Positions 19,873-37,021 of a stretch of 64,000 nucleotides of DNA are shown in pieces (position 1 is the stretch's first letter; the number at the start of each line of letters is the position of its first letter). The DNA comes from Pararhodobacter sp. (GTDB taxonomy: Bacteria > Pseudomonadota > Alphaproteobacteria > Rhodobacterales > Rhodobacteraceae). The stretch lies in assembly GCA_020832805.1 (NCBI GenBank), contig JAFIED010000006.1:15336-79335 (forward strand). Reading direction: 5' to 3'. The notes under the pieces are model-generated. The model was not told where the DNA came from, ran no database searches, and saw only the letters and a program-made list of their open reading frames with translations. The position numbers were made by a program, and so were the translations under genes.

Positions 19873-19898
19873 ATTATATGACAATCTTGTCCTACAAA
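19873..19898. promoter_or_regulatory. tandem operator boxes, site 2
   Basis: ATTATATGACAAT + CTTGTCCTACAAA between divergent surE and thiolase. Confidence 0.75.
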
Positions 19899-19941
19899 CA
19901 TGAGGAGCACAACCCGGTTCCATCCGGGCAAGGGGGGAAAG

Positions 19942-21183
19942 ATGCGCGAAGTTTTCGTGGTTGGTGTCGGCATGACGCCCTTTGGCCGCTGGCCGGATCG
20001 CAGCGTGGGCGACATGGCACAGGATGCGGTGCGCGCGGCACTGGCCGATTGCGGGCTGGGGCCGGAGGCGGTGCAATCCATCGCCTTTGCCAATGCCGTT
20101 CAGGGCGCGATGGAGGGGCAGTTCGGCATTCGCGGACAGATCGCGCTGCAAGAGATGCCCTTTGATGCCGTGCCCATCATCAATGTCGAAAACGCCTGTG
20201 CCAGCGCCTCGACCGCGTTCAACATCGCGCTCAGCCAGATCCGCGCGGGCGAGGTGGATGTGGCGCTGGCGGTGGGGTCGGAAAAGATGGTGCATGCCGA
20301 TGGCGCCCTGTCCATGGCGGCGTTCGAGGGCAGCTGGGACCGCGCCCGCCGCGATGCCACCATCGAACGGCTGACGGCGCTGGGCCACGGCATGCCCACA
20401 CCGCCTGAACAGGCGGCGCGCGAATCGCCGCGCACGGTGTTCATGGATGTCTATGCTGCCTTTACCAAATACCACATGGCCCGATTCGGCACCACGCAGC
20501 GGCAGATGGCGGCGGTGGCGGCGAAGAACCACAATCATTCGGTGCACAATCCCCTGTCGCAATACCGCAAGCCCTTTACCGTCGACGAGGTCTTGCAGGC
20601 CCGGCTGATCGCCTGGCCGCTGACGCTGCCGATGTGTTCGCCGATCAGCGACGGGGCGGCGGCGGCGGTGCTGGTATCCGGCGAGGCGTTGAAGCGGTTG
20701 GGGCTTTTGCGCGCGGTGCGGGTGCGCGCGCAGGTGCTGATGAACGGCGGCAGGCGGGCGCCCGATCAGGTAGAGCGCCATATCTCGCACCGCGCGGCGC
20801 ATCGGGCCTACGAACTGGCCGGGCTGGGGCCGGAGGATGTGGATGTGGCCGAATGCCACGACGCCACCGCCTTTGGCGAGATCCAGCAAAGCGAGAATAT
20901 GGGCTTCTTCGCCTTTGGCGAGGGCGGGCCGGCGGCGGAGCGCGGCGAGACGAGCCTTGGCGGGCGCATTCCCTTCAACCCCTCGGGCGGGCTGGAATCA
21001 AAGGGCCACCCCATCGGCGCCACCGGGCTGGGGCAGATATTCGAACTGGTGACACAGTTGCGCGGCGAGGCAGGCAAGCGGCAGGTCGAAGGGGCGCGGA
21101 TTGCGTTGCAGGAGAACGGCGGCGGGCTGATGGGCGTGGAAGAGGCCGCAGTGGCCGTAACTTTGCTGGAGCGCGCAACATGA
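19942..21183 (+). CDS. thiolase family protein (SCP-x / lipid-transfer type)
   Basis: VENACASASTA, CSPISDGAAA, AECHDAT, SKGHPIGATG. Confidence 0.92.
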   Translation: MREVFVVGVGMTPFGRWPDRSVGDMAQDAVRAALADCGLGPEAVQSIAFANAVQGAMEGQFGIRGQIALQEMPFDAVPIINVENACASASTAFNIALSQIRAGEVDVALAVGSEKMVHADGALSMAAFEGSWDRARRDATIERLTALGHGMPTPPEQAARESPRTVFMDVYAAFTKYHMARFGTTQRQMAAVAAKNHNHSVHNPLSQYRKPFTVDEVLQARLIAWPLTLPMCSPISDGAAAAVLVSGEALKRLGLLRAVRVRAQVLMNGGRRAPDQVERHISHRAAHRAYELAGLGPEDVDVAECHDATAFGEIQQSENMGFFAFGEGGPAAERGETSLGGRIPFNPSGGLESKGHPIGATGLGQIFELVTQLRGEAGKRQVEGARIALQENGGGLMGVEEAAVAVTLLERAT

Positions 21184-22733
21184 GCCTGGCGATTCTGCTG
21201 GCCAATGCCGCCCGGCGCCACGCAGATAGCCCGGCGGTTTCCGTTGGTTTGCAGACCGTGTTGACCTATGGCCAGATGGGGGCGCGGGCGGCGGCGCTGG
21301 CCGGTGGCATGATGGCGCGTCACGGGCTGCGGCCGGGTGACCGCGTGGCGCTGGCCCTGCGCAACTGCCCGGAGTACCTGGAAATCCTGTTTGGCTGCTG
21401 GCATGCGGGGCTGGTTGCCGCACCGATGAACGCAAAGCTGCATGCGCAAGAGCTGGCTTATATGGCCGGCGACTGTGGCGCACGGCTGGTTGTTGCAGAT
21501 GATGATATCGCTGCGGCACTGGCCCCACATCTGCCCGGGGTGCCGCAGCTGGTGCCCGGCAGCGCTGCGTATCGGCGCCTGCTGGCAGGTGATCCGCTGC
21601 CGCTGTACCCGGTTGACCCGGCCGATGCCGCCTGGCTGTTCTACACCTCGGGCACCACCGGCAAGCCCAAGGGCGCGATGCTTTCCCACCGCAACCTGAT
21701 GGCCATGGCCATCGGTTATCTGGCCGATGTCGATGCGCTGGACGAACGCGACGGCTTGATCCATCTGGCGGCGACCTCGCATGCCTCGGGCCTGTTCGGC
21801 CTGTCCTTTGTTGCCAAGGGGGCGAACAACATCCTGCCCGAATCGGGCGGTTATGACGGCAACGAACTGGCGGGGTTGATCGGCGCGCGTGCGCGTCTCA
21901 GCTTTTTCGTGCCGCCGACCCTTTTGCGCCGCATGGTTGCCGATCCCGTTCTGCTGGCCGCCCCGAATCAGAATATCCGCACGATCCTGCTGGGTGCCGC
22001 GCCGGTCTTTGCCCAGGATTTGCGGGCGGGCGTCCAGGCGTTCGGCCCACGGCTGTGGAACGGCTATGGCCAGGGCGAAAGCCCCTGCACCATTACCGCC
22101 ATGAGCCAGCGCGACATTGCCGATGCACTGGCGGTGGGCAACGAAAGCCGGCTTGCCTCGGTCGGCACGGCGCGCAGCGGCACACAAGTGATCGTTGCCG
22201 ACGACCAGGGGCAGCCGTTGCCGCCCGGTGCGACCGGCGAGGTTCTGGTGCGGGGCGAAACCGTCATGGCCGGCTACTGGAACCGGCCGGAAGCCACGGC
22301 AGAGACCCTGCACAAGGGCTGGCTGAAAACCGGCGACATGGGCCGGATGGACGATGCCGGCTTCCTTTGGCTGCTGGACCGCCGAAAGGATGTCATCATC
22401 TCGGGCGGGGTGAACATCTATGCCAGGGAAATCGAAGATGTCCTGCACGATCACCCTGGTATCGCCGAGGCCGCCGTGGTCGGCCAGCCGGACCCTGAAT
22501 GGGGTGAAAGCGTGGTGGCCTTTGTCGTGCCCAGCCCCGGCGCGACAAGCGATCCCGCGGCATGGGAACAGATGCTGGCGGAACGGCTGGCCCGGTTCAA
22601 GCGCCCGCGCCACTGGCGGATCGTCGACACCTTGCCAAAGAACGCAGCCGGCAAGGTTCTGAAACGCCAGTTGCGCGCCGACCTTGCAACCCAATCCGGC
22701 GGCACCGACCAGGCCGCGTGGGTGCGAAGATAA
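21180..22733 (+). CDS. AMP-binding acyl-CoA synthetase
   Basis: YTSGTTGKPKG, YGQGE, TGDMG, DRRKDVIISGG, LPKNAAGKV; ATGA overlap with thiolase. Confidence 0.93.
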   Translation: MSLAILLANAARRHADSPAVSVGLQTVLTYGQMGARAAALAGGMMARHGLRPGDRVALALRNCPEYLEILFGCWHAGLVAAPMNAKLHAQELAYMAGDCGARLVVADDDIAAALAPHLPGVPQLVPGSAAYRRLLAGDPLPLYPVDPADAAWLFYTSGTTGKPKGAMLSHRNLMAMAIGYLADVDALDERDGLIHLAATSHASGLFGLSFVAKGANNILPESGGYDGNELAGLIGARARLSFFVPPTLLRRMVADPVLLAAPNQNIRTILLGAAPVFAQDLRAGVQAFGPRLWNGYGQGESPCTITAMSQRDIADALAVGNESRLASVGTARSGTQVIVADDQGQPLPPGATGEVLVRGETVMAGYWNRPEATAETLHKGWLKTGDMGRMDDAGFLWLLDRRKDVIISGGVNIYAREIEDVLHDHPGIAEAAVVGQPDPEWGESVVAFVVPSPGATSDPAAWEQMLAERLARFKRPRHWRIVDTLPKNAAGKVLKRQLRADLATQSGGTDQAAWVRR

Positions 22734-22858: not shown

Positions 22859-23608
22859 ATGGCAAAGCTATACGTGGATAACGACAAGTTCGGTTATCAA
22901 TCCGCCTCGCCCACGGTCGAGGCGTTCCATGCCGCCATCAAGGACATCGTGCGCCGCAAGCTGGACGACTGCGGCGGCGACTGGGACAGTTTTGTCTTTG
23001 ACAAGTCCTATGACCTGATCACCGCCGAAGACATGGCAAGCGTCGAACAGATGCTGCTGGACGCCGGGCACAAGTTCGACTGGTCAGCGGCGATCAGCCC
23101 GCGCGAGAAACCTGAAATCTACAAGCCCGCCGCCGGCGTGTCGGACGAGGACATGGCCACCTTCAGCTTCGAACACCCCGAGGCGAAAACGGCCGATGCC
23201 GATGCTGACGGGCGCGAATTGCGCGGCATTGGCGACAATGTGGCGCAGTATCCGCAGAACTGCAGCGGCACCGCGCGCTACATCCGGTCGCCCGATCAGG
23301 TGCTGAAATACCTGAACGAGGGCGTGCCGGCCGACACCATCGCCATCATCGACGATTCGGGCGGCACGCTGACCGCGCCCATCCTTGAGCATTTCAAGGG
23401 CGTGATCTGCGCCGGCGGGTCCACGCGGTCGCATCTGGGCATCCTCACGCGCGAATACGGCGTGCCATGCCTGATGAATGCCAAGATCAGCGGCATCCGG
23501 CAGGGCGATATCGTCGAGATCGAGGTGACCGCCAAGGCCAAGACGGCAGAAGCCTATCAGACCGGGGTCGAGATGACCGCCAATGTCTGGCGGCTGAACA
23601 AGGCCTGA
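22859..23608 (+). CDS. PEP-utilising enzyme mobile (phospho-His swivel) domain protein with unknown N-terminal domain
   Basis: GVICAGGSTRSHLGILTREYGVPC (His192) matches the T/S-S-H-x-x-I-x-x-R-E-x-G-x-P phosphohistidine signature. Confidence 0.88.
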   Translation: MAKLYVDNDKFGYQSASPTVEAFHAAIKDIVRRKLDDCGGDWDSFVFDKSYDLITAEDMASVEQMLLDAGHKFDWSAAISPREKPEIYKPAAGVSDEDMATFSFEHPEAKTADADADGRELRGIGDNVAQYPQNCSGTARYIRSPDQVLKYLNEGVPADTIAIIDDSGGTLTAPILEHFKGVICAGGSTRSHLGILTREYGVPCLMNAKISGIRQGDIVEIEVTAKAKTAEAYQTGVEMTANVWRLNKA

Positions 23609-23644: not shown

Positions 23645-25201
23645 ATGGCGCAGAATCGCATTTCATACGCGCAACTGCTTGAAACCAACAACATGATGCA
23701 GACCTGCTCTGACGAGACCTATTGGCTCTGCGTTACCCGCACGGTGCAGGAATCAAAGCTGTTTCCCGTGCCTGCCTACATGATGCTCAGCTATCTGAAC
23801 GCCTTTTACCGCTACCCGTCGCTGTTGAAAAAGATCGAAAGCCGCATGTCGGCCGAGGAGATCGGCGACCGGGCGCGCAACATGGGCATGAAGATTCAGA
23901 ACCCGTCGATGGGCTGGGCGCTGCCGGGCTTTTATCTGCTGGGCCGCGAATGGCTGATCAACATGGGCCTGCTGAAGCCCACGGACGCCATCGAGGATGT
24001 GGTCTATGTGATGGATTTCTGGAAGCGTTTCCAGCTGTCCTGGCACCGCAACGACGGGCACATCACCAACAAGGAATACGGCCACCGCGCGCAGGTGCTG
24101 CCCGAAAGCCGGGTGCAGGTCTTTCATGCCGACATGTATGACTGCGTCGAGGGGGACGAGCTGCACGAAGCCGCGCAGACCTTCATGGCCTCGGCCAGCC
24201 AGTACGGGTTCCTGATCTCCTGCGAAAGCCGCATCAGCCTGCACAATTCCGGCCCCTACAAGCTGGCCGACGACCGCGAAATGATCGTGCGCGACTTCAT
24301 GGACCTGTCGGAATCGGATTTCCCCTGGCTGGATGACGTCGCTGCGGGCGTGCCGCATAACAACATCACCGTGACAATGGCGGTAAAGGACTGCCATTTC
24401 TATCTGGTCGATGACTGGGGCTCGTTCGAGGCGCAGCCGGAATTCAAGGCCGACAAACTGGTGGGCGTGGGGCTTTACACCTCTGACAACCTGTCGGATG
24501 GCTACATGCCGCTGGGCATGGAATCGCGCGAGGCGCTCATCGCCAAGTTCAACGAGTTGAACGCCCAGGTAAAGGACGCCACCACCCAGCTGTGGAAGCG
24601 CATCGCCGCCTGGTCGCGCGACCAGATGATCGACGCCGGCGCGATCACCTATTTCGCCATCATCAAGGATCTGGCCCATGTCGCCGGTGTCTACGACGTC
24701 GACGACTGGATGAAGATCGACGAGCGCGCCGAACGCTTCCGCCCGCTGCTGAACGACGAATTCAGCCGTGACGCGCTGGGCGAGCTGGTGGGTCTGGTAT
24801 CGCATCCCAGCCAGCAGGTGATGGAATACACCATGGCGATGCATTCCAACAAACCGGTGCGGATGTATTCCAACATCCCCTATTCGGTACTGGCGGGCGA
24901 GCCCTACACGGCCTCCAGCGGGCCGGTCTATCCGGGCATCACCTATCTGCCGGAAAAGAAGGATGCCTATACCACCACGCGCGGGCGCATGACCCTGGCC
25001 GAATACAACAAGGCAAGCCGGGAATTCACGCCGCCAACGCTGACCGACAAGTACCGCCACCTGTGCGACACCTGGGTGAAATACAATGCCGGCAGCGAAC
25101 TGGCCGACGAGATGTACAAGCTCGAACAGGCCCGGTCGCGCAACCTGAAGGGCAAGGGATCGTCGCTGAAACGCGCCGATGTCGAAAAGCTGCGCGGCTG
25201 A
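23645..25201 (+). CDS. conserved hypothetical protein (518 aa), candidate substrate-binding subunit of a split dikinase
   Basis: GGAGGAG RBS, strong GC3 codon bias, globular composition; no motif recognised; function inferred only from context. Confidence 0.85.
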   Translation: MAQNRISYAQLLETNNMMQTCSDETYWLCVTRTVQESKLFPVPAYMMLSYLNAFYRYPSLLKKIESRMSAEEIGDRARNMGMKIQNPSMGWALPGFYLLGREWLINMGLLKPTDAIEDVVYVMDFWKRFQLSWHRNDGHITNKEYGHRAQVLPESRVQVFHADMYDCVEGDELHEAAQTFMASASQYGFLISCESRISLHNSGPYKLADDREMIVRDFMDLSESDFPWLDDVAAGVPHNNITVTMAVKDCHFYLVDDWGSFEAQPEFKADKLVGVGLYTSDNLSDGYMPLGMESREALIAKFNELNAQVKDATTQLWKRIAAWSRDQMIDAGAITYFAIIKDLAHVAGVYDVDDWMKIDERAERFRPLLNDEFSRDALGELVGLVSHPSQQVMEYTMAMHSNKPVRMYSNIPYSVLAGEPYTASSGPVYPGITYLPEKKDAYTTTRGRMTLAEYNKASREFTPPTLTDKYRHLCDTWVKYNAGSELADEMYKLEQARSRNLKGKGSSLKRADVEKLRG

Positions 25202-25276: not shown

Positions 25277-26764
25277 ATGCAGATCGGCTCTCTCATCCGC
25301 CGGGCGGCGGTGCATTTCGGTGATGCCCCCTGCCTGACCGAAGGCGCACGCAGTTTCAGCTACCGCGACTTCGACGCGGCCACCGACCGGCTGGGCAATG
25401 CGCTGCTTGCCAGCGGGTTGCAGCCGGGTGACCGGGTGGGTGTGCTGCTGCCCAATTCCATCGAATGCCTGATCGCCTATTACGCGCTGGCCAAGGCCGG
25501 GCTGGTGCGCGTGTCGCTGAACACGCGCGAGACACTGGAAAACCACAACTACAAACTGGCCGACAGCGGATCGCGTGCCGTGATCCATCAGGATATCGAC
25601 GGCTTGCAGGTAGAGCGCGCCATCGGTGCGGCCGAACTGGCACAGATGATCGCGGGCGGCGATGCCACCCCCTGCGCCATCGACCGCGACCTGGATGCGC
25701 CCCTGCGGCTGGGCTATACCGGGGGCACCACCGGCCAGCCGAAGGCGGTGACGCTGACCACGCGCGGCGAACTGGCCGAGCTCAGTGCGTTTCTGACCGA
25801 CCTGATGCCCGATATCCGCCCCGGCGACACCTTTTTGCATGCCGCGCCTATCGCCCATGCCTCGGGCGCGTTTTTCCTGCCCGCCATCACCTGTGGTGCG
25901 CGCTCTCTCATCATGCCGAAGTTCGATGCCGCCGAGTTCCTGGCACTTGCCGCGCGCGAACAGGCAAGCCTGACCTTTCTTGTACCCACGATGCTGGCCA
26001 TGATCATGGAGGCACCCGGCATCGACAGCGCGCAACTGAATTTCCGGCGCATCGCCTATGGCGCCTCGCCCATCTCGCCCACGCTGCTGGAACGCGCCGA
26101 GGCCCGGTTTGGCCGTGTCTTTGCCCAGACCTATGGCCAGGCCGAAAGCCCCATGGTGATCACCTGCCTGAAACCCGAAGACCATGACCGCATCGGCTCT
26201 TGCGGGCGGCCTTTCACCATCGTCGAGGTCGCGGTCTTTGACGACAACGACCAGCCCCTGCCGCCGGGCGAAAAGGGCGAGATCGTGTGTCGCGGCCCGC
26301 AGACCATGGCCTATTACTGGAACCGGCCAGAGGCGACGGAAAAGGCATTTCGCAACGGCTGGCTGCATACCGGCGACATCGGCACCATGGACGAGGACGG
26401 CTTCTTCTACATCCTCGACCGCAAGAACGACATGCTGATTTCCGGCGGCTTCAACGTCTACCCGCGCGAGGTGGAAGAGGTGCTGATGGCCTATCCCGGC
26501 GTGGTCGAAGCCGCCGTGGTGGGCCTGCCGGATGACACCTATGGCGAACGGGTCCATGCCGTTGTTTCGGGTCGCGCGGGACTGGATGCGCAGGCAATCC
26601 TTGAACACGCGCGCGGGCAGCTGGCGGGCTACAAGCGGCCGCGCGGCATCGACATCTGGCCAGAGCTGCCAAAGAGTTCGGCCAACAAGATTTTGCGGCG
26701 CGCGGTCCGTGACCGGCTGATCACCGAGGCCGGCACCCAGCCCGCCGCCGCCGCACAGGATTGA
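25277..26764 (+). CDS. AMP-binding acyl-CoA synthetase
   Basis: YTGGTTGQPK, YGQAE, WLHTGDIG, DRKNDMLISGGFNVYPREVE, LPKSSANKI. Confidence 0.93.
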   Translation: MQIGSLIRRAAVHFGDAPCLTEGARSFSYRDFDAATDRLGNALLASGLQPGDRVGVLLPNSIECLIAYYALAKAGLVRVSLNTRETLENHNYKLADSGSRAVIHQDIDGLQVERAIGAAELAQMIAGGDATPCAIDRDLDAPLRLGYTGGTTGQPKAVTLTTRGELAELSAFLTDLMPDIRPGDTFLHAAPIAHASGAFFLPAITCGARSLIMPKFDAAEFLALAAREQASLTFLVPTMLAMIMEAPGIDSAQLNFRRIAYGASPISPTLLERAEARFGRVFAQTYGQAESPMVITCLKPEDHDRIGSCGRPFTIVEVAVFDDNDQPLPPGEKGEIVCRGPQTMAYYWNRPEATEKAFRNGWLHTGDIGTMDEDGFFYILDRKNDMLISGGFNVYPREVEEVLMAYPGVVEAAVVGLPDDTYGERVHAVVSGRAGLDAQAILEHARGQLAGYKRPRGIDIWPELPKSSANKILRRAVRDRLITEAGTQPAAAAQD

Positions 26765-26777: not shown

Positions 26778-27383
26778 ATGCAACAGATGCATCTTGCCCT
26801 GCACGGGCTGGCCATCAAGAAACACGGCAGCCCCGCCGAAGTGGCCGCCATCGTGGGTTTGGATGAAGGCACCGCCGCCACCCTGCTGGACCAGGCCGCC
26901 GCCAACGGCCGCGCGGCCAGGGCGGGCGAGGCCAAATTCATGCTGACCGCGCCCGCGCAGATGGCCCTGCGCATGGAATACGGCAGGCTTTACGCCGATC
27001 TGCGCGCCAATGACGCCATGAACGCCGCCTATGACCGGTTCGAAAAGGTCAATGCCGACCTGAAGCAGTTGATCACCGACTGGCAGACAATCGAAGTGGC
27101 AGGCTCGCGCGTGCCCAATGATCATTCGGACAAGGCCTATGACGCGCGCATCATCGACCGGCTGGGCGCGCTGCACGAAGCTGCAGAACAGGTGATCGGC
27201 CAGATGGCGGCGCATCTGCCGCGCCTGTCGGTCTATGGCGATCTGCTGACCGAGGCGCTGGAAAAGGCCGAGGACGGCGCGCATGAATGGGTCAGCGACG
27301 CCAAGCTGCCAAGCTATCACACCGTCTGGTTCGAGATGCACGAGGACCTTCTGCGCATTCTCGGGCGCGAGCGCGATGAATAA
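26778..27383 (+). CDS. winged-HTH protein resembling mycobacterial Rv1126c (partner of truncated PpdK)
   Basis: N-terminal LHGLAIKK..AEVAAIVG wHTH-like segment; C-terminal SYHTVWFEMHEDLL motif recalled from the protein encoded beside mycobacterial ppdK; overlaps the ppdK-like start. Confidence 0.7.
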   Translation: MQQMHLALHGLAIKKHGSPAEVAAIVGLDEGTAATLLDQAAANGRAARAGEAKFMLTAPAQMALRMEYGRLYADLRANDAMNAAYDRFEKVNADLKQLITDWQTIEVAGSRVPNDHSDKAYDARIIDRLGALHEAAEQVIGQMAAHLPRLSVYGDLLTEALEKAEDGAHEWVSDAKLPSYHTVWFEMHEDLLRILGRERDE

Positions 27384-29196
27384 ACCGATGACCATCACCC
27401 CCCCCCATTCCGGCCATGACGGCCGCTGGACACTGACGCTGGACGGCGCAGAGTTGCCCCCGGCATCATTGATCGGCGGCAAGGCTTGGTCGGTGGCGCG
27501 CATGCTGTCATTGGGGCTGCCGGTGCCTCCCGCATTCGTCATCACCACCGAAGCCTGCCGCGCCTATCTGGCCAGCGGCGCCATGCCCGCCGGTCTGGAA
27601 GACCAGATCCGCGACGGCATACGCGACCTGGAGGCCCGCACAGGCCATGCCTTTGGCGGCCCCGGCGTGCCGCTTCTGGTCTCGGTGCGTTCCGGCGCGC
27701 CGATTTCCATGCCGGGAATGATGGACACCATCCTGAATCTGGGCATTTCCGACGAGACCGAGGCGCATCTGGCACAGGCGACAGGCGATGCCGGCTTCGC
27801 GCGCGACACGCATCGCCGCTTCTATGACCTTTACGCCAGCATCGTCTGCAAGGCCGTTGGCGCCGAATTCGATGCCGATGCCGGGTCGGCCGACTGGGAT
27901 GCCGTGCTGCAGGCGGCGACCGGCCAGACCATGCCCGAAACCGTCGAGGAACGCCTGTTCGCAGCGGTCCGCGCGGTCTTTGAAAGCTGGAACGCACGGC
28001 GCGCCAGGCGCTATCGTCAGCACCATGGCATACCGGACGATCTGGGCACCGCCGTCACCATTCAGGCCATGGTATTCGGCAATCTGGACGCCAACAGCGG
28101 CACCGGCGTGCTGTTCAGCCGCAACCCGCTGACCGGCGCGCGCGAGCCTTACGGCGAATACCTGCCGCGCGCGCAGGGCGAGGATGTGGTATCGGGCAAG
28201 TTCACGCCCGAACCCCTGTCGCGTATGGCCGAGCACGAACCGCAGGCCCATGCCGATCTTCTGCGCGCGGCAGAGGTCCTGGAACGTGAGAACGGTGATG
28301 TTCAGGATATCGAATTCACCGTGCAGCATGGCAAGCTCTACCTGTTGCAGACCCGCGCTGCCAAGCGCGCGCCGGATGCGGCCGTGCAGATCGCGGCGGA
28401 CATGGTCGCCGACGGCACAATCACCCCGCAAAAGGCCCTGAGCCGGGTATCCGCCGCGCAGGTGCGCAGCCTTCTGGCCCCGCGCCTGACACGGGCACCG
28501 GGCCCGGAAACAGAGGTGCTGGCACAGGGTGAAGGCGCCAGCCCCGGTGTGGGCCGCGGCATTGCCGTGACCGATGCCGATGAGGCCGAACAGCGCGCCG
28601 CGCAGGGCGAAGAGGTTGTGCTGGTGCGCGCCATCACCAGCCCCGAGGATGTGCATGGCATGATCGTGGCGCGCGCCGTGGTCACCGAAACCGGCGGCTC
28701 TACCTCGCATGCCGCGGTGGTGGGGCGCGCGTTGGGTCTGCCGTCGGTGGTGGGCTGCGGCGCGGGCGTGGTCGATGCGTTGAAGGGCCGCGAAATCACG
28801 GTCGAGGGCAGCATGGGCAAGGTCTTTGCCGGGCTGCTGGACGTATCCACCCCCGACGAGCGCAGCGATCCACGTCTGGCGCAATTGACCGAATGGGCGC
28901 GCGCCGCCAGCCCCTTGCGCGTCCTGCGCCCTGACGAGGTGCCTGCTGGCAGCGATGTGCAGGACCTGTCGCATGTCGAAGGGGGCGAAGACCCCCAGCA
29001 GATTGGCCGTGTCCTGCAAGGCGTGCGCGCCGCCCAGGGGGGGGCCATCGGGTCTGACGAAGGGGTGCGCGCCGCCATGGATCAGGGGCTCGAATTCATC
29101 GTCTGTACCCCGGTGCTGCCGGCCCTTCTGGCTGCCGTGCATTACGCCGCCGAACAGGCCGGCCAGATGACAGACACCCAACCCGCCGTTGACTGA
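27376..29196 (+). CDS. pyruvate,phosphate dikinase-like protein lacking the C-terminal PEP/pyruvate barrel (606 aa)
   Basis: GGKA, LLVSVRSGA..SMPGMMDTILNLG, QAMVFGN, SGTGVLFSRNP, QGEDVVSG, DIEFT..LQTR, GGSTSHAAVVGR (His445); only a short tail follows the swivel domain. Confidence 0.92.
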   Translation: MNKPMTITPPHSGHDGRWTLTLDGAELPPASLIGGKAWSVARMLSLGLPVPPAFVITTEACRAYLASGAMPAGLEDQIRDGIRDLEARTGHAFGGPGVPLLVSVRSGAPISMPGMMDTILNLGISDETEAHLAQATGDAGFARDTHRRFYDLYASIVCKAVGAEFDADAGSADWDAVLQAATGQTMPETVEERLFAAVRAVFESWNARRARRYRQHHGIPDDLGTAVTIQAMVFGNLDANSGTGVLFSRNPLTGAREPYGEYLPRAQGEDVVSGKFTPEPLSRMAEHEPQAHADLLRAAEVLERENGDVQDIEFTVQHGKLYLLQTRAAKRAPDAAVQIAADMVADGTITPQKALSRVSAAQVRSLLAPRLTRAPGPETEVLAQGEGASPGVGRGIAVTDADEAEQRAAQGEEVVLVRAITSPEDVHGMIVARAVVTETGGSTSHAAVVGRALGLPSVVGCGAGVVDALKGREITVEGSMGKVFAGLLDVSTPDERSDPRLAQLTEWARAASPLRVLRPDEVPAGSDVQDLSHVEGGEDPQQIGRVLQGVRAAQGGAIGSDEGVRAAMDQGLEFIVCTPVLPALLAAVHYAAEQAGQMTDTQPAVD

Positions 29197-29224
29197 CCGG
29201 CGTTTTCAGACAAGCGAGGCCCGC

Positions 29225-29767
29225 ATGAAAACCCCTGACACCGCTCCCCAGCAGGTCAAACCCGAGGATATCGAGGCGCTGATCGAGGTCTTTCAGGCCT
29301 CTGACTGGGACGAAATGCACCTGACAATGGGCGAATTCGAGATCTTTCTGTCGAACGACCCCAACGCCGCGCCGCAAGGCGCCGCACCAGCCCCCGCGCC
29401 CGCACCGGCCGCGCTGGCCGCCAGCGCGGCATCTGCTGCTGCACCCGGTGCTGCGCCTGCACTGGCCGCGCCAGCCCCCGCAGCCGGCGGGCCCGCCAGT
29501 GCTGGGGCCGAGGATGTGCCGGCGCATTGGCAGGTCGTCAGCGCCCCCAATCTGGGCACTTTCTACCGCGCGCCCAAACCCGGTGCCGCCAATTATTGCG
29601 AAGTCGGCCAAAGCGTGACTGCAGACAGCGAATTGTGCCTGATCGAGGTGATGAAGCTGTTTACCGCGCTGCGCGGTGGTATCGCGGGCACGGTGCGGCG
29701 CATCTGTGTGGCCGATGGCGAGATGGTCGAATACGGCCAGCCGCTTTTCTATATCGAGCCGGCATAA
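29225..29767 (+). CDS. biotin carboxyl carrier protein (AccB-like)
   Basis: Ala/Pro linker, GTFYRAPKPG, IEVMKL biotinyl-Lys motif, VEYGQPLF. Confidence 0.95.
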   Translation: MKTPDTAPQQVKPEDIEALIEVFQASDWDEMHLTMGEFEIFLSNDPNAAPQGAAPAPAPAPAALAASAASAAAPGAAPALAAPAPAAGGPASAGAEDVPAHWQVVSAPNLGTFYRAPKPGAANYCEVGQSVTADSELCLIEVMKLFTALRGGIAGTVRRICVADGEMVEYGQPLFYIEPA

Positions 29768-29770
29768 GCC

Positions 29771-31150
29771 ATGCCTGTCAAACGCCTTTTCGTGGCCAAC
29801 CGTGGCGAGATCGCCCTGCGCATCCTGCGTTCGGCCCGCGCGATGGGAATCGAGACGGTGCTGGGCGTTTCGGCTGCCGACCGCGAGGGCGCCGGGCCTG
29901 AGGCAGCAGACCGCGTGGTGGTGCTGGGTCCGGCACCCTCGGCCAAAAGCTATCTGGACCCGCGCCTGATCGTCCATGCCGCCGCCGCCACTGGCTGCGA
30001 CGCGCTGCATCCGGGCTATGGGTTCCTGTCCGAAAAACCCGAGCTGGCGCGCCTGTGCGAGGAAGAGGGCATCGCCTTTGTCGGCCCGCGCCCCGAAACC
30101 ATCGAGGCGCTGGGCGACAAGATGTCAGCCCGCGCCATGGCCATTGCTGCGGGTGTGCCCATCGTACCGGGCACCGATCACATCGCCGATCTGGACAGCG
30201 CGCGAAAGGCAGCGGCGGAATTGGGCTATCCGGTGGTGATGAAGGCCTCGGCCGGCGGCGGCGGGCGCGGCATGTTCAAGGCGGCCAGTGAGGCCGAACT
30301 GAACGCCTCGTTCGAGAGCGCCTCGCGCGCGGCGCAGGCGGCCTTTGGCGACAGCCGGCTTTACATGGAGCGTTTCGTCGAGGCAGCGCGCCATGTCGAG
30401 GTGCAGGTCATCGGCGACGGCGAGGGGGGCGTGCTGCATTTCGGCGAGCGTGACTGTTCCGTGCAGCGCCGATACCAGAAGCTGATCGAGGAAGCGCCCG
30501 CCAGCGCCATGCCCGACGCGCTGCGCACCCGCCTGCACGAAGCCGCCATCCGCATCTGTGCCCATGCCCGCTACCGCAATGCCGGCACGGTGGAATTCCT
30601 GTACGACGTGGCGCGGCAGGACATCTATTTCATCGAGGTCAATTCCCGCATCCAGGTCGAACACCCCGTGACCGAGGAGATCACCGGCATCGACCTGATT
30701 GCCTGCCAGCTGAAGGTCGCGGGCGGCGATGCGCTGGGCCTGACACAGGCTGATATCCGCCCCGCCGGCCATGCCATCGAGGTGCGCATCAACGCCGAGG
30801 ACCCGTTCGCCGATTTCCGCCCCTCGCCCGGGCGCATCACGGGCTGGGAACCGCCACGGGGGCCGGGCGTGCGGCTGGATAGCCACGCGCGCGCGGGTTA
30901 TCTGGTGCCCCCCTTTTACGACTCGATGATCGGCAAGCTGATCGTGCATGGCCATGACCGGGCCCAGGCCATCGACCGCCTGTTGCAGGCCATTGCCGAT
31001 TTCCGGCTGGAAGGGCCGCAGACCACGCTGCCGCTGGCTGCGCACATCCTGGACCACCCCGACTTTCGTGCAAACACATTCACGACCCGCTGGCTGGAGG
31101 ATCGGGTATTGCCCGATTTCGCCGCCGAGCGCCGTGCTGATGCCCCCTGA
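29771..31150 (+). CDS. biotin carboxylase subunit (AccC-like)
   Basis: ANRGEIA, HPGYGFLSE, GGGGRGM, ERDCSVQRR, EVNSRIQVEHPVTE, YDSMIGK. Confidence 0.96.
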   Translation: MPVKRLFVANRGEIALRILRSARAMGIETVLGVSAADREGAGPEAADRVVVLGPAPSAKSYLDPRLIVHAAAATGCDALHPGYGFLSEKPELARLCEEEGIAFVGPRPETIEALGDKMSARAMAIAAGVPIVPGTDHIADLDSARKAAAELGYPVVMKASAGGGGRGMFKAASEAELNASFESASRAAQAAFGDSRLYMERFVEAARHVEVQVIGDGEGGVLHFGERDCSVQRRYQKLIEEAPASAMPDALRTRLHEAAIRICAHARYRNAGTVEFLYDVARQDIYFIEVNSRIQVEHPVTEEITGIDLIACQLKVAGGDALGLTQADIRPAGHAIEVRINAEDPFADFRPSPGRITGWEPPRGPGVRLDSHARAGYLVPPFYDSMIGKLIVHGHDRAQAIDRLLQAIADFRLEGPQTTLPLAAHILDHPDFRANTFTTRWLEDRVLPDFAAERRADAP

Positions 31151-31164
31151 AGGAGAACGCCCCG

Positions 31165-32625
31165 ATGCATGTCGAATTCCTGGACGAAACCATCCGTGAT
31201 GGCCAGCAAAGCCTGTGGGGCATGCAGATGCAGGCCGGTATGGCGCTGCCCGTCACCCCGCTGCTGGACCGTACCGGCTTTCGGGTGATCGATCTGGCAG
31301 GCTCGTCGATGATGGAGGTGCTGATCAAGCGGTGCCGCGAAAACCCGTGGGAGGGGCTGGATCTGCTGGTGCAGTCGATGCCGCGCACACCCATTCGCGG
31401 CGGCATGCGCTCGAACGCCTCGGTCACCTTCGGCGTCACGCCGGATGCGCTGATGGATGCCTGGATGCGGCAGCTCAATCGCCACGGGGTGCGCAGCTTC
31501 TGGATCTATGATGTGCTGTTCAACATCCCCCAGACCCACCGGCTGGCCAAGGTCGCCAAGGAATTCGGGTCCGAGGTGGCGGGGGCGATCATGTTCACCC
31601 TCTCGCCCGTCCATACGGATGAATACTATGCCGACAAGGCCGACAAGCTGTCGGCCAGCCCCGATATCGACACGCTCTTGCTGTATGATACCGCCGGCAC
31701 GCTGGACAAGGACCGGCTGAAAACCCTGTTGCCCGCCATCGTGGCCAAGGCGCGCGGCAAGCCCATCGAGTTCCATTCCAACAACATCCTGGGCATGTCG
31801 GCCAAGGCCTATCTGGACAGCCTGGAACTGGGCGTCACCATCCTGCACACCGCCTCGCGCCCCATGGCGAACGGGCCGTCCACCCCGTCGACCGAGATCA
31901 TGGTCAAGAACATCGAGCTCAAGGGCTATACCCACAATCTGGACAAGAGCCTGTTCAAGCCGGTGGCCGATCATTTCGAGGCCGTAGGCAAGGCAGCCGG
32001 CTATCTGGTCAACCAGTACAACGAATACGACATCCTGTCGATCGAACACCAGATTCCCGGCGGGATGACCGGCACGCTGAAGGCACAGCTGGCCCAGCAC
32101 GGCATGTCCGACAAGCTGGATCAGGTGCTGGCCGAGACCGCCGAGGTGCGGCGCGAACTGGGCTATCCGGGCATGGCAACGCCCTTCAGCCAGCTTGTCG
32201 GCACGCTGGCGGTGCTGAACATCGTCACCGGCAAGCGCTATTCGGTGATCCCGGACGAGGTCATCCAGTATGCCGCCGGTTTTTATGGCGAGACGGTCGC
32301 GCCCATCGACCCGAATGTTCTGGACCGCATCATGGCATCGCCCCGCGCCAAGGAGGTCGTCGCCAACCCGCCCGAACAGCCCACCATCGAGGAATTGCGC
32401 AAGCGCTACGGCACCGACAACGATGACGAGTTGATCCTGCGCGCGCTGGTGCCAGAGGCCGATCTGGAACGGATGTGGGCGGCGGGGCCGGTGAAAACCA
32501 CCTATCCGCTGCTGTCCTCGCCCGAACTGGATCAGGTGCGCCGGTTGATGCGCGTGGCCCGCGCGCCGGTGGTGCAGATCAAGTCCTCGCTGATGAACCT
32601 GTCGCTCAAGCGTCATTCGGCCTGA
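31165..32625 (+). CDS. carboxyltransferase subunit, pyruvate carboxylase B / oxaloacetate decarboxylase alpha family (divergent)
   Basis: DETIRDGQQSL, HQIPGGM, RRELGYPGMATPFSQLVG; metal-ligand motifs altered (YDTAG, HSN). Confidence 0.9.
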   Translation: MHVEFLDETIRDGQQSLWGMQMQAGMALPVTPLLDRTGFRVIDLAGSSMMEVLIKRCRENPWEGLDLLVQSMPRTPIRGGMRSNASVTFGVTPDALMDAWMRQLNRHGVRSFWIYDVLFNIPQTHRLAKVAKEFGSEVAGAIMFTLSPVHTDEYYADKADKLSASPDIDTLLLYDTAGTLDKDRLKTLLPAIVAKARGKPIEFHSNNILGMSAKAYLDSLELGVTILHTASRPMANGPSTPSTEIMVKNIELKGYTHNLDKSLFKPVADHFEAVGKAAGYLVNQYNEYDILSIEHQIPGGMTGTLKAQLAQHGMSDKLDQVLAETAEVRRELGYPGMATPFSQLVGTLAVLNIVTGKRYSVIPDEVIQYAAGFYGETVAPIDPNVLDRIMASPRAKEVVANPPEQPTIEELRKRYGTDNDDELILRALVPEADLERMWAAGPVKTTYPLLSSPELDQVRRLMRVARAPVVQIKSSLMNLSLKRHSA

Positions 32626-32628: not shown

Positions 32629-33813
32629 ATGGCAGCCCGGCGCGCCGTGATCGTCGATCTGCTGCGCAGCCCCTGGGGCCGGGGGCGCGCAGATGGCGGG
32701 CTGGCCGCGCTGCACCCGGTCGATCTGTATGCCCAGGTGCTGCGCGGTCTGATACGCCGCAACGGGCTGGACCCGGCGCTGGTGGAAGATGTCATCACCG
32801 GCTGCGTGATCCAGGTCGCCGAACAATCCGGCAATATCGGCCGGCAGGCGGCGCTGGCGGCGGGGTTTCCGGTCAGCGTGCCGGCGGTGACGCTGGATCG
32901 TAAATGCGGCTCGGCCCAGCAGGCGATGGATTTCGCAGCACAGGGCATCATCGCCGGCGCCTATGACGTTGTCATCGCCGGCGGCGTAGAGATGATGAGC
33001 CGTGTGCCGATGCGCGCCAACCGCATGGGCAAGGATAACCTGGGCCCCATGTTGCGCGCCCGCTACCCTGACGGCTTCGTGCATCAGGGCATCTCGGCAG
33101 AACTGATCGCCGCGCGCTGGAACCTGAAGCGCCGCGCATTGGACCAATATGCCGCGCGCTCGCATCGGCTCGCGCATGCCGCGCGCGCGGCCGGGCTGAC
33201 CGCGCGCGACATCCTGCCCATCGATACCCCCGCAGGCACCGTCACCCTGGACGAGGGCCTGCGCCCCGACACCTCGGCAGAGATCCTGGCCGGGCTGAAG
33301 CCTGCCTTTTTCGACGCCGAGGTGGCGCGCGCCTATCCGCAGATCCGCTGGTCGGTCACGGCCGGGAATGCCAGCCAGGTCAGCGACGGGGCAGGCGCGG
33401 CGCTGTTGATGGAAGAAGCCACCGCCCTTGCCCTGGGCCGGACCCCGCGTGCGGCCATCACCCATTTTGCAGTGGCGGGCGACGATCCGATCCTGATGCT
33501 GACCGGCGTGATTCCCGCCACGCGCAAACTGCTGGCCCGCGCTGATCTGGGCATCGACGCCATCGACGCGTTCGAGGTCAACGAAGCCTTTGCGCCCGTC
33601 GTGCTGGCCTGGCAGCACGAAACAGGCGCCGCATCCGAACGCGTGAATCCACTGGGCGGCGCCATCGCCCTGGGTCACCCGGTCGGCGCTTCGGGTGTGC
33701 GGCTGATGGGCAACCTTCTGGCGCGGCTGGAAGCAACGGATGGCCGGCGGGGATTGATCACCATGTGCGAATCCGGTGGTATGGCCAACGCAACGCTGAT
33801 CGAGCGTCTATAG
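32629..33813 (+). CDS. acetyl-CoA C-acyltransferase (thiolase)
   Basis: DRKCGSAQQA, TAGNASQVSDGA, EVNEAFA, GHPVGASG, MCESGG. Confidence 0.95.
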   Translation: MAARRAVIVDLLRSPWGRGRADGGLAALHPVDLYAQVLRGLIRRNGLDPALVEDVITGCVIQVAEQSGNIGRQAALAAGFPVSVPAVTLDRKCGSAQQAMDFAAQGIIAGAYDVVIAGGVEMMSRVPMRANRMGKDNLGPMLRARYPDGFVHQGISAELIAARWNLKRRALDQYAARSHRLAHAARAAGLTARDILPIDTPAGTVTLDEGLRPDTSAEILAGLKPAFFDAEVARAYPQIRWSVTAGNASQVSDGAGAALLMEEATALALGRTPRAAITHFAVAGDDPILMLTGVIPATRKLLARADLGIDAIDAFEVNEAFAPVVLAWQHETGAASERVNPLGGAIALGHPVGASGVRLMGNLLARLEATDGRRGLITMCESGGMANATLIERL

Positions 33814-33826: not shown

Positions 33827-34126
33827 ATGTTCGTCGTTTCCGTGCTCTATCCCAATACCGAAGGCAAGCATTTCGATCTTGACTACTATACCGGCCGGCA
33901 CCTGCCGCTGGTGCATCGCCTGCTGGACCCAAAGGGGTTGCGCAGCCTGACCTATTACCAGCCTGCACCCGGCGCGCCCTTCCGGCTGGTCGCCGAAATG
34001 CGCTTTGACGATGGCAAAGCCGCCAGGGCCGCCCTGAGTGCCCATGGCGCCGAAACCCAGGCCGATATCCCCAATTTCACCGACGAGGCGCCGATCATCC
34101 TGATGGCGCCTCTCGTTTCGGGCTGA
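33827..34126 (+). CDS. EthD family protein
   Basis: VSVLYP....FDLDYYTGRHLPLV...ADIPNFTD. Confidence 0.85.
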   Translation: MFVVSVLYPNTEGKHFDLDYYTGRHLPLVHRLLDPKGLRSLTYYQPAPGAPFRLVAEMRFDDGKAARAALSAHGAETQADIPNFTDEAPIILMAPLVSG

Positions 34127-34237: not shown

Positions 34238-35020
34238 TTACTGCCGCGCCGTCGTGCCGCCATCGATCACCAGCACCGTGCCGTTGCAATAGCTTGCCTC
34301 GTCCGACGCCAGATACAGGCAGCCATGGGCCATCTCCTCGGGCGTGCCGGGGCGTTTCATCGGGGTCAGGCTGTCGGCCACCGCCGGATCGTCGAACAGG
34401 TTCAGCACCGAAGCCACCATCGGCGTGGCAATGAAGCCGGGCGCGATGCAGTTGGTGCGGATGTTGTCGCCCGCATAGGCCACGCACATCGCCCGCGTCA
34501 GATTGATCATGCCGCCTTTGGCCGCGCAGTAGGTATGCGCTGCGGGCAGCCCCTGAAAGCCGGAAATCGAGGCGACATGCACGATCGACCCGCCGCCCTG
34601 CTTCTTCATCTGCCGCACCGCCAGTTTCGAAATCAGGAAACAGGCGGTCAGGTTGATGTTCAGCACCTCGTTCCATTTCTCCAGCGAGGTCTCGGCGATG
34701 TCATTCATCGACCCGGGGCTTTTTTCCATCCAGCTGTAGCCCACGCCTGCGGCATGAACCACGATGTCCACGCGGCCGTGCCTGCTCAGCGCGGCCTGGA
34801 AAGCGGCCTCGGCGTCGGCCTCGGTGGCCAGATCGGCAGCGTGGTAATCGGCCTCGCCTCCTGCCGCGCGCACCAGTTCGACCGTCTCGCGCAGGTTCGC
34901 CTCGGTGCGTGACACGCCGAATACCTTGCCCCCCTCCCGGGCAAAGATCTGCATCGCCGCCCGCCCCACGCCGGTCCCAGCCCCGGCGATGAAGACAACC
35001 TTGTCCTGAACACGTCCCAT
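34238..35020 (-). CDS. SDR family oxidoreductase
   Basis: GAGTGVG, YCAAK catalytic motif, NCIAPG, IDGG. Confidence 0.93.
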   Translation of the reverse strand: MGRVQDKVVFIAGAGTGVGRAAMQIFAREGGKVFGVSRTEANLRETVELVRAAGGEADYHAADLATEADAEAAFQAALSRHGRVDIVVHAAGVGYSWMEKSPGSMNDIAETSLEKWNEVLNINLTACFLISKLAVRQMKKQGGGSIVHVASISGFQGLPAAHTYCAAKGGMINLTRAMCVAYAGDNIRTNCIAPGFIATPMVASVLNLFDDPAVADSLTPMKRPGTPEEMAHGCLYLASDEASYCNGTVLVIDGGTTARQ

Positions 35021-35069
35021 GGGTTCCTCCCTCAAGTACCCTGTGCCAAAAAGCTTGACACCCTCCAGA

Positions 35070-35108
35070 ATCGTAAGACTAGATTGTTTTACAATATCGC
35101 ACAACAAT
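35070..35108. promoter_or_regulatory. tandem operator boxes (three units), site 4
   Basis: ATCGTAAGACTAG + ATTGTTTTACAAT + ATCGCACAACAAT between divergent SDR and Zn-ADH; TTGACA at 35055. Confidence 0.8.
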
Positions 35109-35154
35109 ATGGCACGTCCGGTTGGCGATTTGGCACATCGGAGGGGGAGACGAC

Positions 35155-36195
35155 ATGAAGGCAGCAATATTCAAGGGGCTGGGCCACAAGCTGGCGATCG
35201 AGGAGCGCCCGCGCCCGGTGGCGGGGCCGGGGCAGGTGGTGTTGCGCGTCGCGGCCTGTGGCATCTGCGGCTCGGACCTGCATGCCACACAGGAAGGCGT
35301 GTTCCTGATGCCTGACGGCACCGTGCTGGGGCACGAATTTTCCGGCGAGGTGGTGGAAAGTACCGATGACGCCTTTGCGCCCGGCGATCGGGTTACGGCG
35401 CTGCCGGTCAATGCCTGCGCCGACCCGGCCTGTCAGGCGCTGGGCCGCTGCAAGGATGATCTGGGCATTCGCTGCCCGCAGAACCGCATCACCGGGCTGG
35501 CACTGGATGTGCCCGGCGCCTATGCCGATTATGTGGCGGTTGGCGCCCGGCAGGCGGTGCGCCTGCCGGAAAATGTCAGTTACGACGAGGGCGCGCTGGT
35601 CGAACCGCTGGCGGTGGGGCTGCATGCGGTGCGCAAATCCGGCCTCGGCCCCGGTGCACGCGTGCTGGTCATCGGCGCCGGGCCGATCGGCCTGTCGGTG
35701 GCGGCCTTTGCCCGCCACGCCGGCGCCCGCGCCGTGGTGGTCAGCGAGATGAACGCCACCCGCCGCGCGCTGGCACAGACCATGGGCGCGCATGCCGTCA
35801 TCGACCCGGCCGCGCATGATGAGCTGGGCGCCGCCTTTGCCGATGCCGCCGGCGGGCCGCCCGATGTGATCTTCGAATGCGTGGGGGTGCCGGGCCTGAT
35901 CCAGCAGTGCATCGACCTGTCACAACCGCTGGGCAAGATCGTGGTGGTGGGCGTGCTGATGAAAGAAGACACCATCGTGCCGATCTCGGCCATCCTGAAG
36001 GAGTTGTCGATCCAGTTCGTGCTTGGCTATGTCGACGAGGATTTCGAGATCGTGCTGGATGCCCTGGCCTCAGGCGCCATCGACGCGAAGCCGATGATTT
36101 CGCAGCGCGTCAGTCTGGACGAATTGCCCGACGCGTTCGAGGCGTTGCGCCGGCCCAGCACGCAGGTCAAGGTGCTGATCACGCCGGGCACCTGA
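35155..36195 (+). CDS. zinc-binding alcohol dehydrogenase (sorbitol/butanediol DH-like)
   Basis: CGICGSDLH, GHEFSG, EPLAVG, GAGPIG. Confidence 0.93.
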   Translation: MKAAIFKGLGHKLAIEERPRPVAGPGQVVLRVAACGICGSDLHATQEGVFLMPDGTVLGHEFSGEVVESTDDAFAPGDRVTALPVNACADPACQALGRCKDDLGIRCPQNRITGLALDVPGAYADYVAVGARQAVRLPENVSYDEGALVEPLAVGLHAVRKSGLGPGARVLVIGAGPIGLSVAAFARHAGARAVVVSEMNATRRALAQTMGAHAVIDPAAHDELGAAFADAAGGPPDVIFECVGVPGLIQQCIDLSQPLGKIVVVGVLMKEDTIVPISAILKELSIQFVLGYVDEDFEIVLDALASGAIDAKPMISQRVSLDELPDAFEALRRPSTQVKVLITPGT

Positions 36196-36236: not shown

Positions 36237-36977
36237 TCAGGCGCTCAGGTTTGCGCCGCCGTTAACATAGACCACCTGCCCCGTAATGAACTCGGCCTCG
36301 GGGCTGGCCAGGAATTTCATCAGGTTGGTATAGTCCTCGGCCTGCACACCGCGCCCGGACGGGTTGCTTTGTGCCGAATGGGCCACCAGATCGCCGGCCT
36401 TGGCGCCGAAAAGCTGTCGCACCGCATCTGTCTCGACGATAGAGGGCGCGACGCAGTTGATACGGATGCCACGCGGCGCCAGTTCGACCGCCAGATAACG
36501 CACCAGACTTTCCGACAACGCCTTGCCGACGCCGATGGCGGCATAGTTTTCCACCACGATCCGCCCGCCCCGGCTGGTCAGAAAGAACACCGTGCTGCCG
36601 CGGTCCATCAGGTCAAGGGTTGCCTGAACCAGGAACAACAGCGATGGCCCGTTGGTGATGATCGCGCGGGTAAAACGCGCCGGGTCAGCGTTCAGCACCG
36701 GGCTGGCGTAAGCATCGACGGCACAATGCACCACCTGTTCCAGCCGCGCCCCGGCCGCGCGCACCGCCTCGGCCATCGCCGCGCAACCCTCGGGCGTGCC
36801 CGCATCGGCCTTGATCAGCACGACCCTGGCGCCGGTTGCTGCAACTTCCGCCTGCGCAGCCTCGGCCGCCGCCTGATCACCGTGATAATTCAGAAAGACC
36901 GTGCGGTCCGGCCCGGAAAACGCCTTGCCGATTTCCAGCCCTATGCCCTTTGTGCCCCCGGTAACAAGTATCGCCAT
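36237..36977 (-). CDS. SDR family oxidoreductase (FabL-like enoyl reductase)
   Basis: TGGTKGIG, Y-x6-K (YAAIGVGK), YLAVELAPRGIRINCV. Confidence 0.88.
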   Translation of the reverse strand: MAILVTGGTKGIGLEIGKAFSGPDRTVFLNYHGDQAAAEAAQAEVAATGARVVLIKADAGTPEGCAAMAEAVRAAGARLEQVVHCAVDAYASPVLNADPARFTRAIITNGPSLLFLVQATLDLMDRGSTVFFLTSRGGRIVVENYAAIGVGKALSESLVRYLAVELAPRGIRINCVAPSIVETDAVRQLFGAKAGDLVAHSAQSNPSGRGVQAEDYTNLMKFLASPEAEFITGQVVYVNGGANLSA

Positions 36978-36995
36978 GATTGCCTCCCTGACATC

Positions 36996-37021
36996 ATTGT
37001 AGAACAATCATGTCGGACGAT
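36996..37021. promoter_or_regulatory. tandem operator boxes, site 5
   Basis: ATTGTAGAACAAT + CATGTCGGACGAT just upstream of the SDR start. Confidence 0.8.

Follow-up and report, generated by a model that had tools for sequence, protein, structure and literature searches.

A carboxyltransferase with a rewritten metal site in a PPDK-linked operon of Pararhodobacter sp., a candidate component of a kinase-coupled ketone carboxylase

Biotin-dependent carboxylases that act on phosphorylated ketones have been described as HpeCBA of Rhodococcus rhodochrous GD02, which carboxylates 4-phospho-acetophenone and 4-phospho-acetovanillone and not the free ketones (PMC9618137), and as AcvCDE of Sphingobium lignivorans SYK-6 and Novosphingobium aromaticivorans (bioRxiv 10.1101/2022.04.28.489975; PMC12624787). 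For HpeCBA, product formation dependent on ATP and bicarbonate was measured with 1:1 release of ADP. The kinases of these systems are HpeHI/AcvAB or MarK, each system includes a HAD phosphatase, and in the characterized members the phosphate is carried on a remote phenol hydroxyl, survives carboxylation, and is removed afterwards (PMC9618137). XccA/C/B of Aromatoleum aromaticum EbN1 is a predicted member of the same carboxylase group, and the survey in the MarK paper was confined to Hpe/Acv/MarK homologues. Subunit names differ between reports: Table 1 of PMC9618137 names the carboxyltransferase HpeB and the biotin carboxylase HpeA, in conflict with two other reports (bioRxiv 10.1101/2022.04.28.489975; PMC12624787) that relate HpeA (formerly ApkA) to the carboxyltransferase AcvE and HpeB to the biotin carboxylase AcvD. 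Analysis of a 64,000 nucleotide stretch of Pararhodobacter sp. (Rhodobacteraceae; assembly GCA_020832805.1, contig JAFIED010000006.1, positions 15,336 to 79,335 of the forward strand; hereafter the window, numbered from its first letter) revealed a gene for a carboxyltransferase (CT; 31165 to 32625, + strand) encoding 486 aa with a TIM barrel and a PYC_OADA domain and embedded in an operon of related layout.

As in HpeCBA and AcvCDE, the window carboxylase is encoded by three separate genes of one operon (29189 to 32625) in the order biotin carboxyl carrier protein (BCCP), biotin carboxylase (BC), and a PycB-like CT without a biotinyl domain, and its gene content likewise suggests coupling to an ATP-dependent kinase followed by phosphatase, CoA ligase, and C-C cleavage steps. 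Major differences were also evident. The window CT has Tyr and HxN where the CTs of Hpe-type operons have Lys and HxH; the predicted kinase is a four-protein set derived from pyruvate, phosphate dikinase (PPDK) instead of HpeHI/AcvAB or MarK; the phosphatase is not of the HAD type but PTP-like or SurE; the predicted cleavage enzyme is a thiolase and not a hydrolase; and the substrate need not be aromatic. By analogy, the gene product is proposed, with a probability of roughly 60%, to be the CT of a kinase-coupled three-subunit biotin carboxylase for a phosphorylated ketone, with an acceptor other than pyruvate.

The CT open reading frame (ORF) was intact and its ATG start lay 7 nt 3' of an AGGAG Shine-Dalgarno sequence. 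A Pfam scan identified PF02436 (PYC_OADA) as the sole domain (97.1 bits vs. a cut-off of 27), HMMER matches to solved structures included OadA (2nx9, E-value 4e-56), PycB (5ks8), and the transcarboxylase subunit 5S (1rqb) in the range 1e-48 to 1e-56, and an AlphaFold2 model (mean pLDDT 92.1, input alignment of 65 sequences) superposed over its full length on 5ks8, 1rqb, and 2nx9 with Foldseek TM values of 0.80-0.84. The protein is therefore a full-length CT of the pyruvate carboxylase/OadA/5S type lacking a biotinyl domain. The Pfam scan found no biotinyl domain in the CT, the BCCP being encoded separately, and OadB (PF03977) was not found in the approximately 90% complete source genome while control genomes gave matches, in agreement with the original prediction on both points. 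CT residues 2-430 aligned to four NCBIfam models, with scores far below the equivalog cut-offs of PycB (263.4 vs. 734), OadA (262.5 vs. 756.5), 5S (191.7 vs. 827), and single-chain pyruvate carboxylase (132 vs. 965). Another contig of the source genome encodes a canonical CT with RDGHQS, LKDMAG, HFHTH, and VTPSSK motifs (i.e., Lys and HxH) that is probably the real pyruvate carboxylase.

In canonical pyruvate carboxylase, 5S, and OadA, the metal is bound by Asp, a carbamylated Lys, and two His residues, while an Arg/Gln/Arg set holds pyruvate by its carboxylate and a Thr shuttles the proton. The window CT shares with PycB (5ks8), OadA (2nx9), and 5S (1rqb) the full-length fold, the R-D...Q motif, the Arg of LLRGQN, HQIPGGM, and the catalytic Thr; it differs from them in its placement within a catabolic operon and in the replacement of Lys and the second His by Tyr174 and Asn206. 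Its motifs are RDGQQS (11-16), GMRSNA (80-85, containing R82), YDTAG (174-178), HSN (204-206), and ATPFSQ (338-343, containing T339). HMMER alignment to 2nx9, 5ks8, and 1rqb placed Y174 on the Lys of KDMAG, H204-S-N206 on HxH, R82 on the Arg of LLRGQN, and T339 on the Thr of VTPTSQ, so that the motif assignments proposed from the translated sequence were confirmed. The register of HSN was fixed by relatives of 60-63% identity with HSHN ahead of the same Gly. Accordingly, R11, D12, Q15, R82, H204, and the catalytic T339 are retained, and two of the four canonical metal ligands are exchanged (Lys to Tyr174 and second His to Asn206). The first motif had been described as retained, and this was correct for R11, D12, and Q15 but not for Gln14, which replaces the His of canonical RD[AG]HQS.

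The substitutions are not peculiar to this strain. R11, D12, Q15, R82, Y174, H204, N206, N207, and T339 were invariant in 121 full-length homologues of 74-98% identity, in which 34% of all columns were invariant, and the same residues were invariant in 25/25 members of the Tyr/Asn clade from named or numbered genomes. Decay of the CT was rejected on the invariance of Y174, N206, and the accompanying residues among relatives. Residue states were taken from the multiple alignment only; pairwise tblastn was misleading for the actinobacterial motif HFHSNN, which it showed as HSNN with an apparent loss of the His, although both His are kept in the multiple alignment. A 73% identical CT orthologue in a complete-looking genome (G078:C1:1906470-1907918; L023/L033) contained one in-frame TAG, which may reflect a pseudogene or a sequencing error.

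Three trees were inferred, comprising an IQ-TREE analysis of 85 rows (for the most part representatives of clusters at 50% identity), a FastTree analysis of 127 rows including named genomes and plasmids, and an IQ-TREE analysis of a 74-row alignment without the three trait columns. The same nesting was recovered in all three, from Lys/His/His, the state of the canonical enzymes and of the CTs in Hpe/Acv-type operons, to Glu/His/His, then Tyr/His/His, and finally Tyr/His/Asn. The clade with Glu at the Lys position had a support of 97-99, the Tyr clade nested within it 100, and the clade combining Tyr with His-x-Asn, which lies inside the Tyr clade and contains the window CT, 100 (SH-aLRT 100). 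The Tyr/His/His intermediates, 60-63% identical, were from Sneathiellaceae, Marinibaculum, Burkholderiales, and Rhodocyclaceae, while two side branches had lost the other His and were of the Glu/Gln/His (Ilumatobacteraceae) and Tyr/Ile/His (some alphaproteobacterial metagenome-assembled genomes) types. The trees support a stepwise remodeling of the metal site from Lys to Glu to Tyr to Tyr plus Asn. Within the Tyr superclade, the cluster representatives P0129 and P0139 have Trp at the Lys position, retain neither the Arg-Asp motif nor the two His nor the catalytic Thr, and look like CT-fold pseudoenzymes or proteins of a different function. A separate and unrelated clade of free-standing CTs (P0155, P0164, P0187, P0190, P0195, and P0269) has independently acquired Tyr, Leu, Cys, or Ala for Lys and Asn, Tyr, Val, or Ala for the first His, a convergent change of this metal site.

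The CTs of Hpe-type operons, with anchors defined by synteny, formed the sister clade of the Glu/Tyr branch with a support of 97-99 in the three trees, placing the window CT outside them; they are 35-38% identical to it and keep Lys and HxH. Examples include a Rhizobium leguminosarum plasmid with the gene order HpeH-like, HpeI-like, BCCP, BC, CT, HAD, and acetoacetate-CoA-ligase, and plasmids of Sphingomonas bisphenolicum and Pseudomonas putida YC-AE1 with a Tm-1/MarK-like kinase together with BCCP, BC, CT, and HAD. Other Pararhodobacter species (L037-L042 and L047) carry Hpe-type clusters and not the PPDK-type operon, consisting of an HpeH-like kinase, BC, a Lys/HxH CT, HAD, and an acetoacetate-CoA-ligase-like protein.

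The kinase set lies upstream of the carboxylase genes on the + strand. It includes a barrel-less PPDK-like protein with ATP-grasp and phospho-His swivel domains (27283 to 29196; PF01326 and PF00391; NF004531 with 697.7 bits vs. a cut-off of 456), which possibly starts at a later codon near 27376, a second phospho-His swivel protein of 249 aa with a PEP-utilizers mobile domain (22859 to 23608; PF00391 and synteny), and two proteins of no known family that gave no Pfam or NCBIfam match and were recognized by synteny in related loci, namely the 201-aa conserved partner of the PPDK-like gene (26778 to 27383) and a 518-aa conserved component of the set (23645 to 25201). Two branch-specific motifs scanned over species-representative genomes yielded at least 586 confirmed relatives, and neighborhoods were counted among the best 80 of these loci where at least 8 kb was present on both sides of the CT (n = 52), with linkage defined as at least three of the four genes of the PPDK set lying no more than 10 kb from the CT. 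Linkage was observed in 28/32 Glu/His/His, 2/3 Tyr/His/His, and 8/9 Tyr/His/Asn loci, compared to 0/6 for Glu/Gln/His and 0/2 for Tyr/Ile/His. The window displayed the features of the branch, i.e., Glu or Tyr at the Lys position, R-S-N, H-x-[HN]-N, and MATPFSQ, with all four PPDK-set genes within 10 kb. An Hpe-type kinase or HAD phosphatase was present in none of the 52 counted Glu/Tyr-branch loci nor in the window. In the counted loci BC always adjoined the CT and BCCP was always present, acyl-CoA ligase genes were found in 31/32 Glu-type and 9/9 Tyr/Asn-type loci and a thiolase in 8/9 of the latter, and CoA ligase and thiolase were almost always adjacent to the CT.

The kinase set was also identified near the CT on plasmid pSA1 of Novosphingobium resinovorum, the CT of which is 69.5% identical to that of the window, in another six Tyr/Asn-clade genomes, and on two Rhodococcus plasmids next to a Glu/His/His CT (47% identical) in an operon that includes a PTP-like phosphatase. 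The link with the dikinase is thus real, accompanies loss of the Lys, and is older than the Tyr/Asn pair, as it is also found in the Glu/His/His and Tyr/His/His branches. The original prediction had proposed to test whether the pair marks a dikinase-linked clade; the clade was recovered (SH-aLRT 100), but the link extends to both of the earlier states. On pSA1 (L014) and in N. mangrovi (L122), the gene for the 518-aa protein is directly upstream of BCCP-BC-CT while the swivel, 201-aa, and PPDK-like genes are grouped elsewhere at a distance of several kb, which hints that the 518-aa protein may be tied to the carboxylase.

In the proposed pathway, the PPDK-like protein, second phospho-His carrier, 518-aa, and 201-aa proteins would together phosphorylate the substrate, carboxybiotin would decarboxylate in the CT, T339 would relay a proton from the carbon alpha to the keto group, and the resulting enolate would attack CO2, with R11, Q15, and R82 holding and polarizing the substrate. 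Two acyl-CoAs would then arise from the beta-keto acid through the action of phosphatase, CoA ligase, and thiolase. The carboxylation direction is suggested by the adjacent and intact BC and BCCP, while the presence of CoA ligase and thiolase points to a beta-keto acid as the product and hence to a methyl or methylene ketone as the substrate. The short-chain dehydrogenases/reductases (SDRs) and alcohol dehydrogenase downstream of the CT could oxidize a precursor alcohol to the ketone and suggest a secondary alcohol as the precursor. Aryl phosphates are the preferred substrates of the PTP-like phosphatase family, which hints weakly at a phenolic phosphate handle. Overall, the operon content fits a route from ketone to beta-keto acid, beta-ketoacyl-CoA, and thiolysis, comparable to that of Hpe/Acv (PMC9618137).

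Regarding the metal site, the Glu at the Lys position could plausibly take the place of the carbamate, so that metal binding is probably kept in the Glu/His/His enzymes. In the window CT, Asp12, Tyr174, His204, and Asn206 may either accommodate a harder cation on oxygen-rich ligands or form a pocket that holds the enolate oxygen through hydrogen bonds without any metal, and the independent losses of ligands in the sub-branches lean towards a relaxed need for metal. A tentative and rather unlikely extension is that the Tyr174/Asn206 clade represents the first CT of the pyruvate carboxylase fold to work without a Lewis-acid metal, in which case the Tyr hydroxyl, Asn amide, and His may stabilize the enolate in the manner of the oxyanion hole of crotonase-fold CTs. 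If so, the stepwise series and side-branch ligand losses would record the dismantling of a metal center with catalysis kept.

Several points weigh against a phosphorylated ketone as the substrate. The substrate, direction, and phosphorylation requirement proposed for the Glu/Tyr branch were derived by analogy and from gene order, and the Hpe-type CTs used as anchors in the comparison were set by operon synteny rather than by the HpeA, AcvE, or XccA sequences. A phosphatase gene was found within 10 kb in only 15/32 Glu-type and 4/13 Tyr/Asn-type loci, which makes later removal of a phosphate handle less certain. Finally, the canonical enzymes use R11, Q15, and R82 to bind the pyruvate carboxylate, and the retention of these residues could signify a substrate with an anionic group beside its carbonyl, as in a 2-oxo acid.

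The alternative that survives best had been raised in the original prediction, namely that the PPDK-derived kinase makes the enol phosphate of a ketone, which the CT carboxylates with loss of the phosphate and no need for a metal center. The descent of the kinase from PPDK, which turns pyruvate into its enol phosphate, erosion of the metal ligands only in the PPDK-linked branch, and the lack of a phosphatase gene within 10 kb in most Tyr/Asn-type loci are consistent with this chemistry. It is nevertheless considered unlikely. The invariant T339, R11, and Q15 fit proton removal from a C-H acid, an enol phosphate would be energetic enough without ATP-dependent carboxybiotin and yet BC and BCCP are always there, and the kinase lacks the TIM barrel that binds pyruvate/PEP. 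In addition, PTP-like and SurE phosphatases occur in the window regulon, with the PTP-like gene inside the Rhodococcus operon, and the studied relatives keep the phosphate on a remote hydroxyl through carboxylation (PMC9618137). The enol phosphate acceptor is consequently not favored over a ketone phosphorylated elsewhere.

Retention of R11, D12, Q15, R82, and T339, together with the labels pyruvate carboxylase, OadA, and cfiA given to relatives in public records, would suit a 2-oxo-acid carboxylase of the PycB or CfiA type that acts on pyruvate or 2-oxoglutarate with alternative metal ligands. Those names are automatic (OadA, carboxyltransferase, and cfiA among ten cluster representatives checked), the equivalog cut-offs were missed widely, and the genome has its canonical CT elsewhere. 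Moreover, the gene resides within a catabolic operon of kinase, CoA ligase, and thiolase genes conserved across phyla, and the patchy occurrence of the clade, in 4/400 sampled genomes of the class of the window (Alphaproteobacteria), is unlike that of an anaplerotic enzyme. A 2-oxo-acid carboxylase thus appears improbable, and the claim that the acceptor is not pyruvate was upheld, with pyruvate carboxylase and OadA both very unlikely given the cut-offs, canonical CT, missing OadB, and operon content.

The presence of OadA and 5S among the closest solved structures would also accommodate a complex that is mainly a biotin-dependent decarboxylase or transcarboxylase. This is highly improbable, as the ATP-grasp BC is always adjacent to the CT, OadB was not found in the genome, and the Pfam/domain scans of the window proteins revealed no second, crotonase-fold CT in the operon. 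OadA identity itself was rejected on the lack of OadB and of a biotinyl domain. A catalytically dead or decaying copy, to which the loss of two of four canonical metal ligands might point, is scarcely credible considering the replacement residues invariant across 121 plus 25 sequences of different classes, the retention of every other catalytic residue, the intact ORF with a good ribosome-binding site, and the different appearance of the truly degenerate sister lineage (P0129 and P0139).

The remaining genes of the window are consistent with a catabolic role for the proposed ketone carboxylase. On the + strand, the free-standing BCCP (29189 to 29767; PF00364 and TIGR00531) has an Ala/Pro linker and, in its translation, the EVMKL biotinylation motif, and is followed by the 459-aa ATP-grasp BC (29771 to 31150; PF00289, PF02786, and PF02785; NCBIfam AccC-like with 591 bits). 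A FadA-type thiolase (32629 to 33813, +; PF00108 and PF02803) is directly 3' of the CT and precedes an EthD-family protein (33827 to 34126, +; TIGR02118 with 57.9 bits), while a 495-aa AMP-forming acyl-CoA ligase (25277 to 26764, +; PF00501 and PF13193) lies between the genes of the kinase set. Farther upstream are the PTP-like phosphatase (Y_phosphatase3; 18157 to 18978, +), of the same family as that inside the Rhodococcus version of the operon, and a SurE-family phosphatase (19053 to 20093, - strand; PF01975) that probably starts later than its ORF; SurE was also found near the CT in Tyr-type loci. These are followed by an SCPx-type thiolase (19900 to 21183, +; PF22691 and PF00108) and a second AMP-forming CoA ligase, listed as a 699-aa ORF (20634 to 22733, +) that overlaps the thiolase gene. 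The true start of this ligase is probably near 21200, since its AMP-binding domain begins at residue 190; an analysis of GC content at third codon positions (GC3) was also used for this gene. Downstream of the EthD-family gene are an SDR (34238 to 35167, -), a Zn-dependent alcohol dehydrogenase (35122 to 36195, +), and a second SDR (36237 to 37007, -) that is syntenic in 8/9 Tyr/Asn-type loci.

Two more distant systems offer partial parallels. Acetone carboxylase activates its substrate by phosphorylation. The hydantoinase-type acetone and acetophenone carboxylases resemble the proposed pathway in ATP-driven carboxylation of an unreactive ketone to a beta-keto acid, CoA activation, and thiolysis, but they are biotin-independent with unrelated folds and subunits, and the parallel is confined to the pathway logic. 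The Mycobacterium tuberculosis protein VadK (Rv1127c), which has no PEP/pyruvate barrel, phosphorylates itself on His (PMC13400623). The PPDK-like neighbor of the CT, and not the CT itself, passes the NCBIfam model for Rv1127c/VadK; VadK is described as a regulator of the methylcitrate cycle, in contrast to the window homologue that is located in a catabolic operon with a carboxylase.

Relatives of the branch were identified in at least 586 species-level genomes from several bacterial phyla, with the Glu type common in Pseudonocardia, Gordonia, Nocardia, and Rhodococcus and the Tyr/Asn clade carried by genomes labeled Panacagrimonas, Gammaproteobacteria, Novosphingobium, Roseiarcus, and others. 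Single Panacagrimonas genomes, namely the metagenome-assembled genome JBFIES01 (L053 and L125) and P. perspica DSM 26377 (L049 and P0099), contain both Glu/His/His and Tyr/His/Asn CT operons, and because of this co-occurrence the two types are probably not redundant. Other cultured carriers include Novosphingobium resinovorum SA1, Marinibaculum pumilum KCTC 42964 (Tyr/His/His), and Rhodococcus oxybenzonivorans S2-17 (Glu/His/His). No description of the branch or of its altered site was found in the literature on dikinase/biotin-carboxylase ketone systems, carbamylated-lysine variants, and Rv1126c/Rv1127c.

Kinase-coupled biotin-dependent ketone carboxylation has been known since 2022, only for lignin-derived hydroxyphenyl ketones and with two kinase types. 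The branch that includes the window CT is a much larger sister branch with a predicted third, undescribed kinase, in which metal ligands thought to be essential for this enzyme fold have been progressively replaced. Identification of the substrate would give a function to a widespread catabolic operon, and the mode of enolate stabilization would test the need for a metal center in pyruvate carboxylase-type transferases. Pathways for CO2 fixation or ketone upgrading might also be engineered with new parts from the branch.

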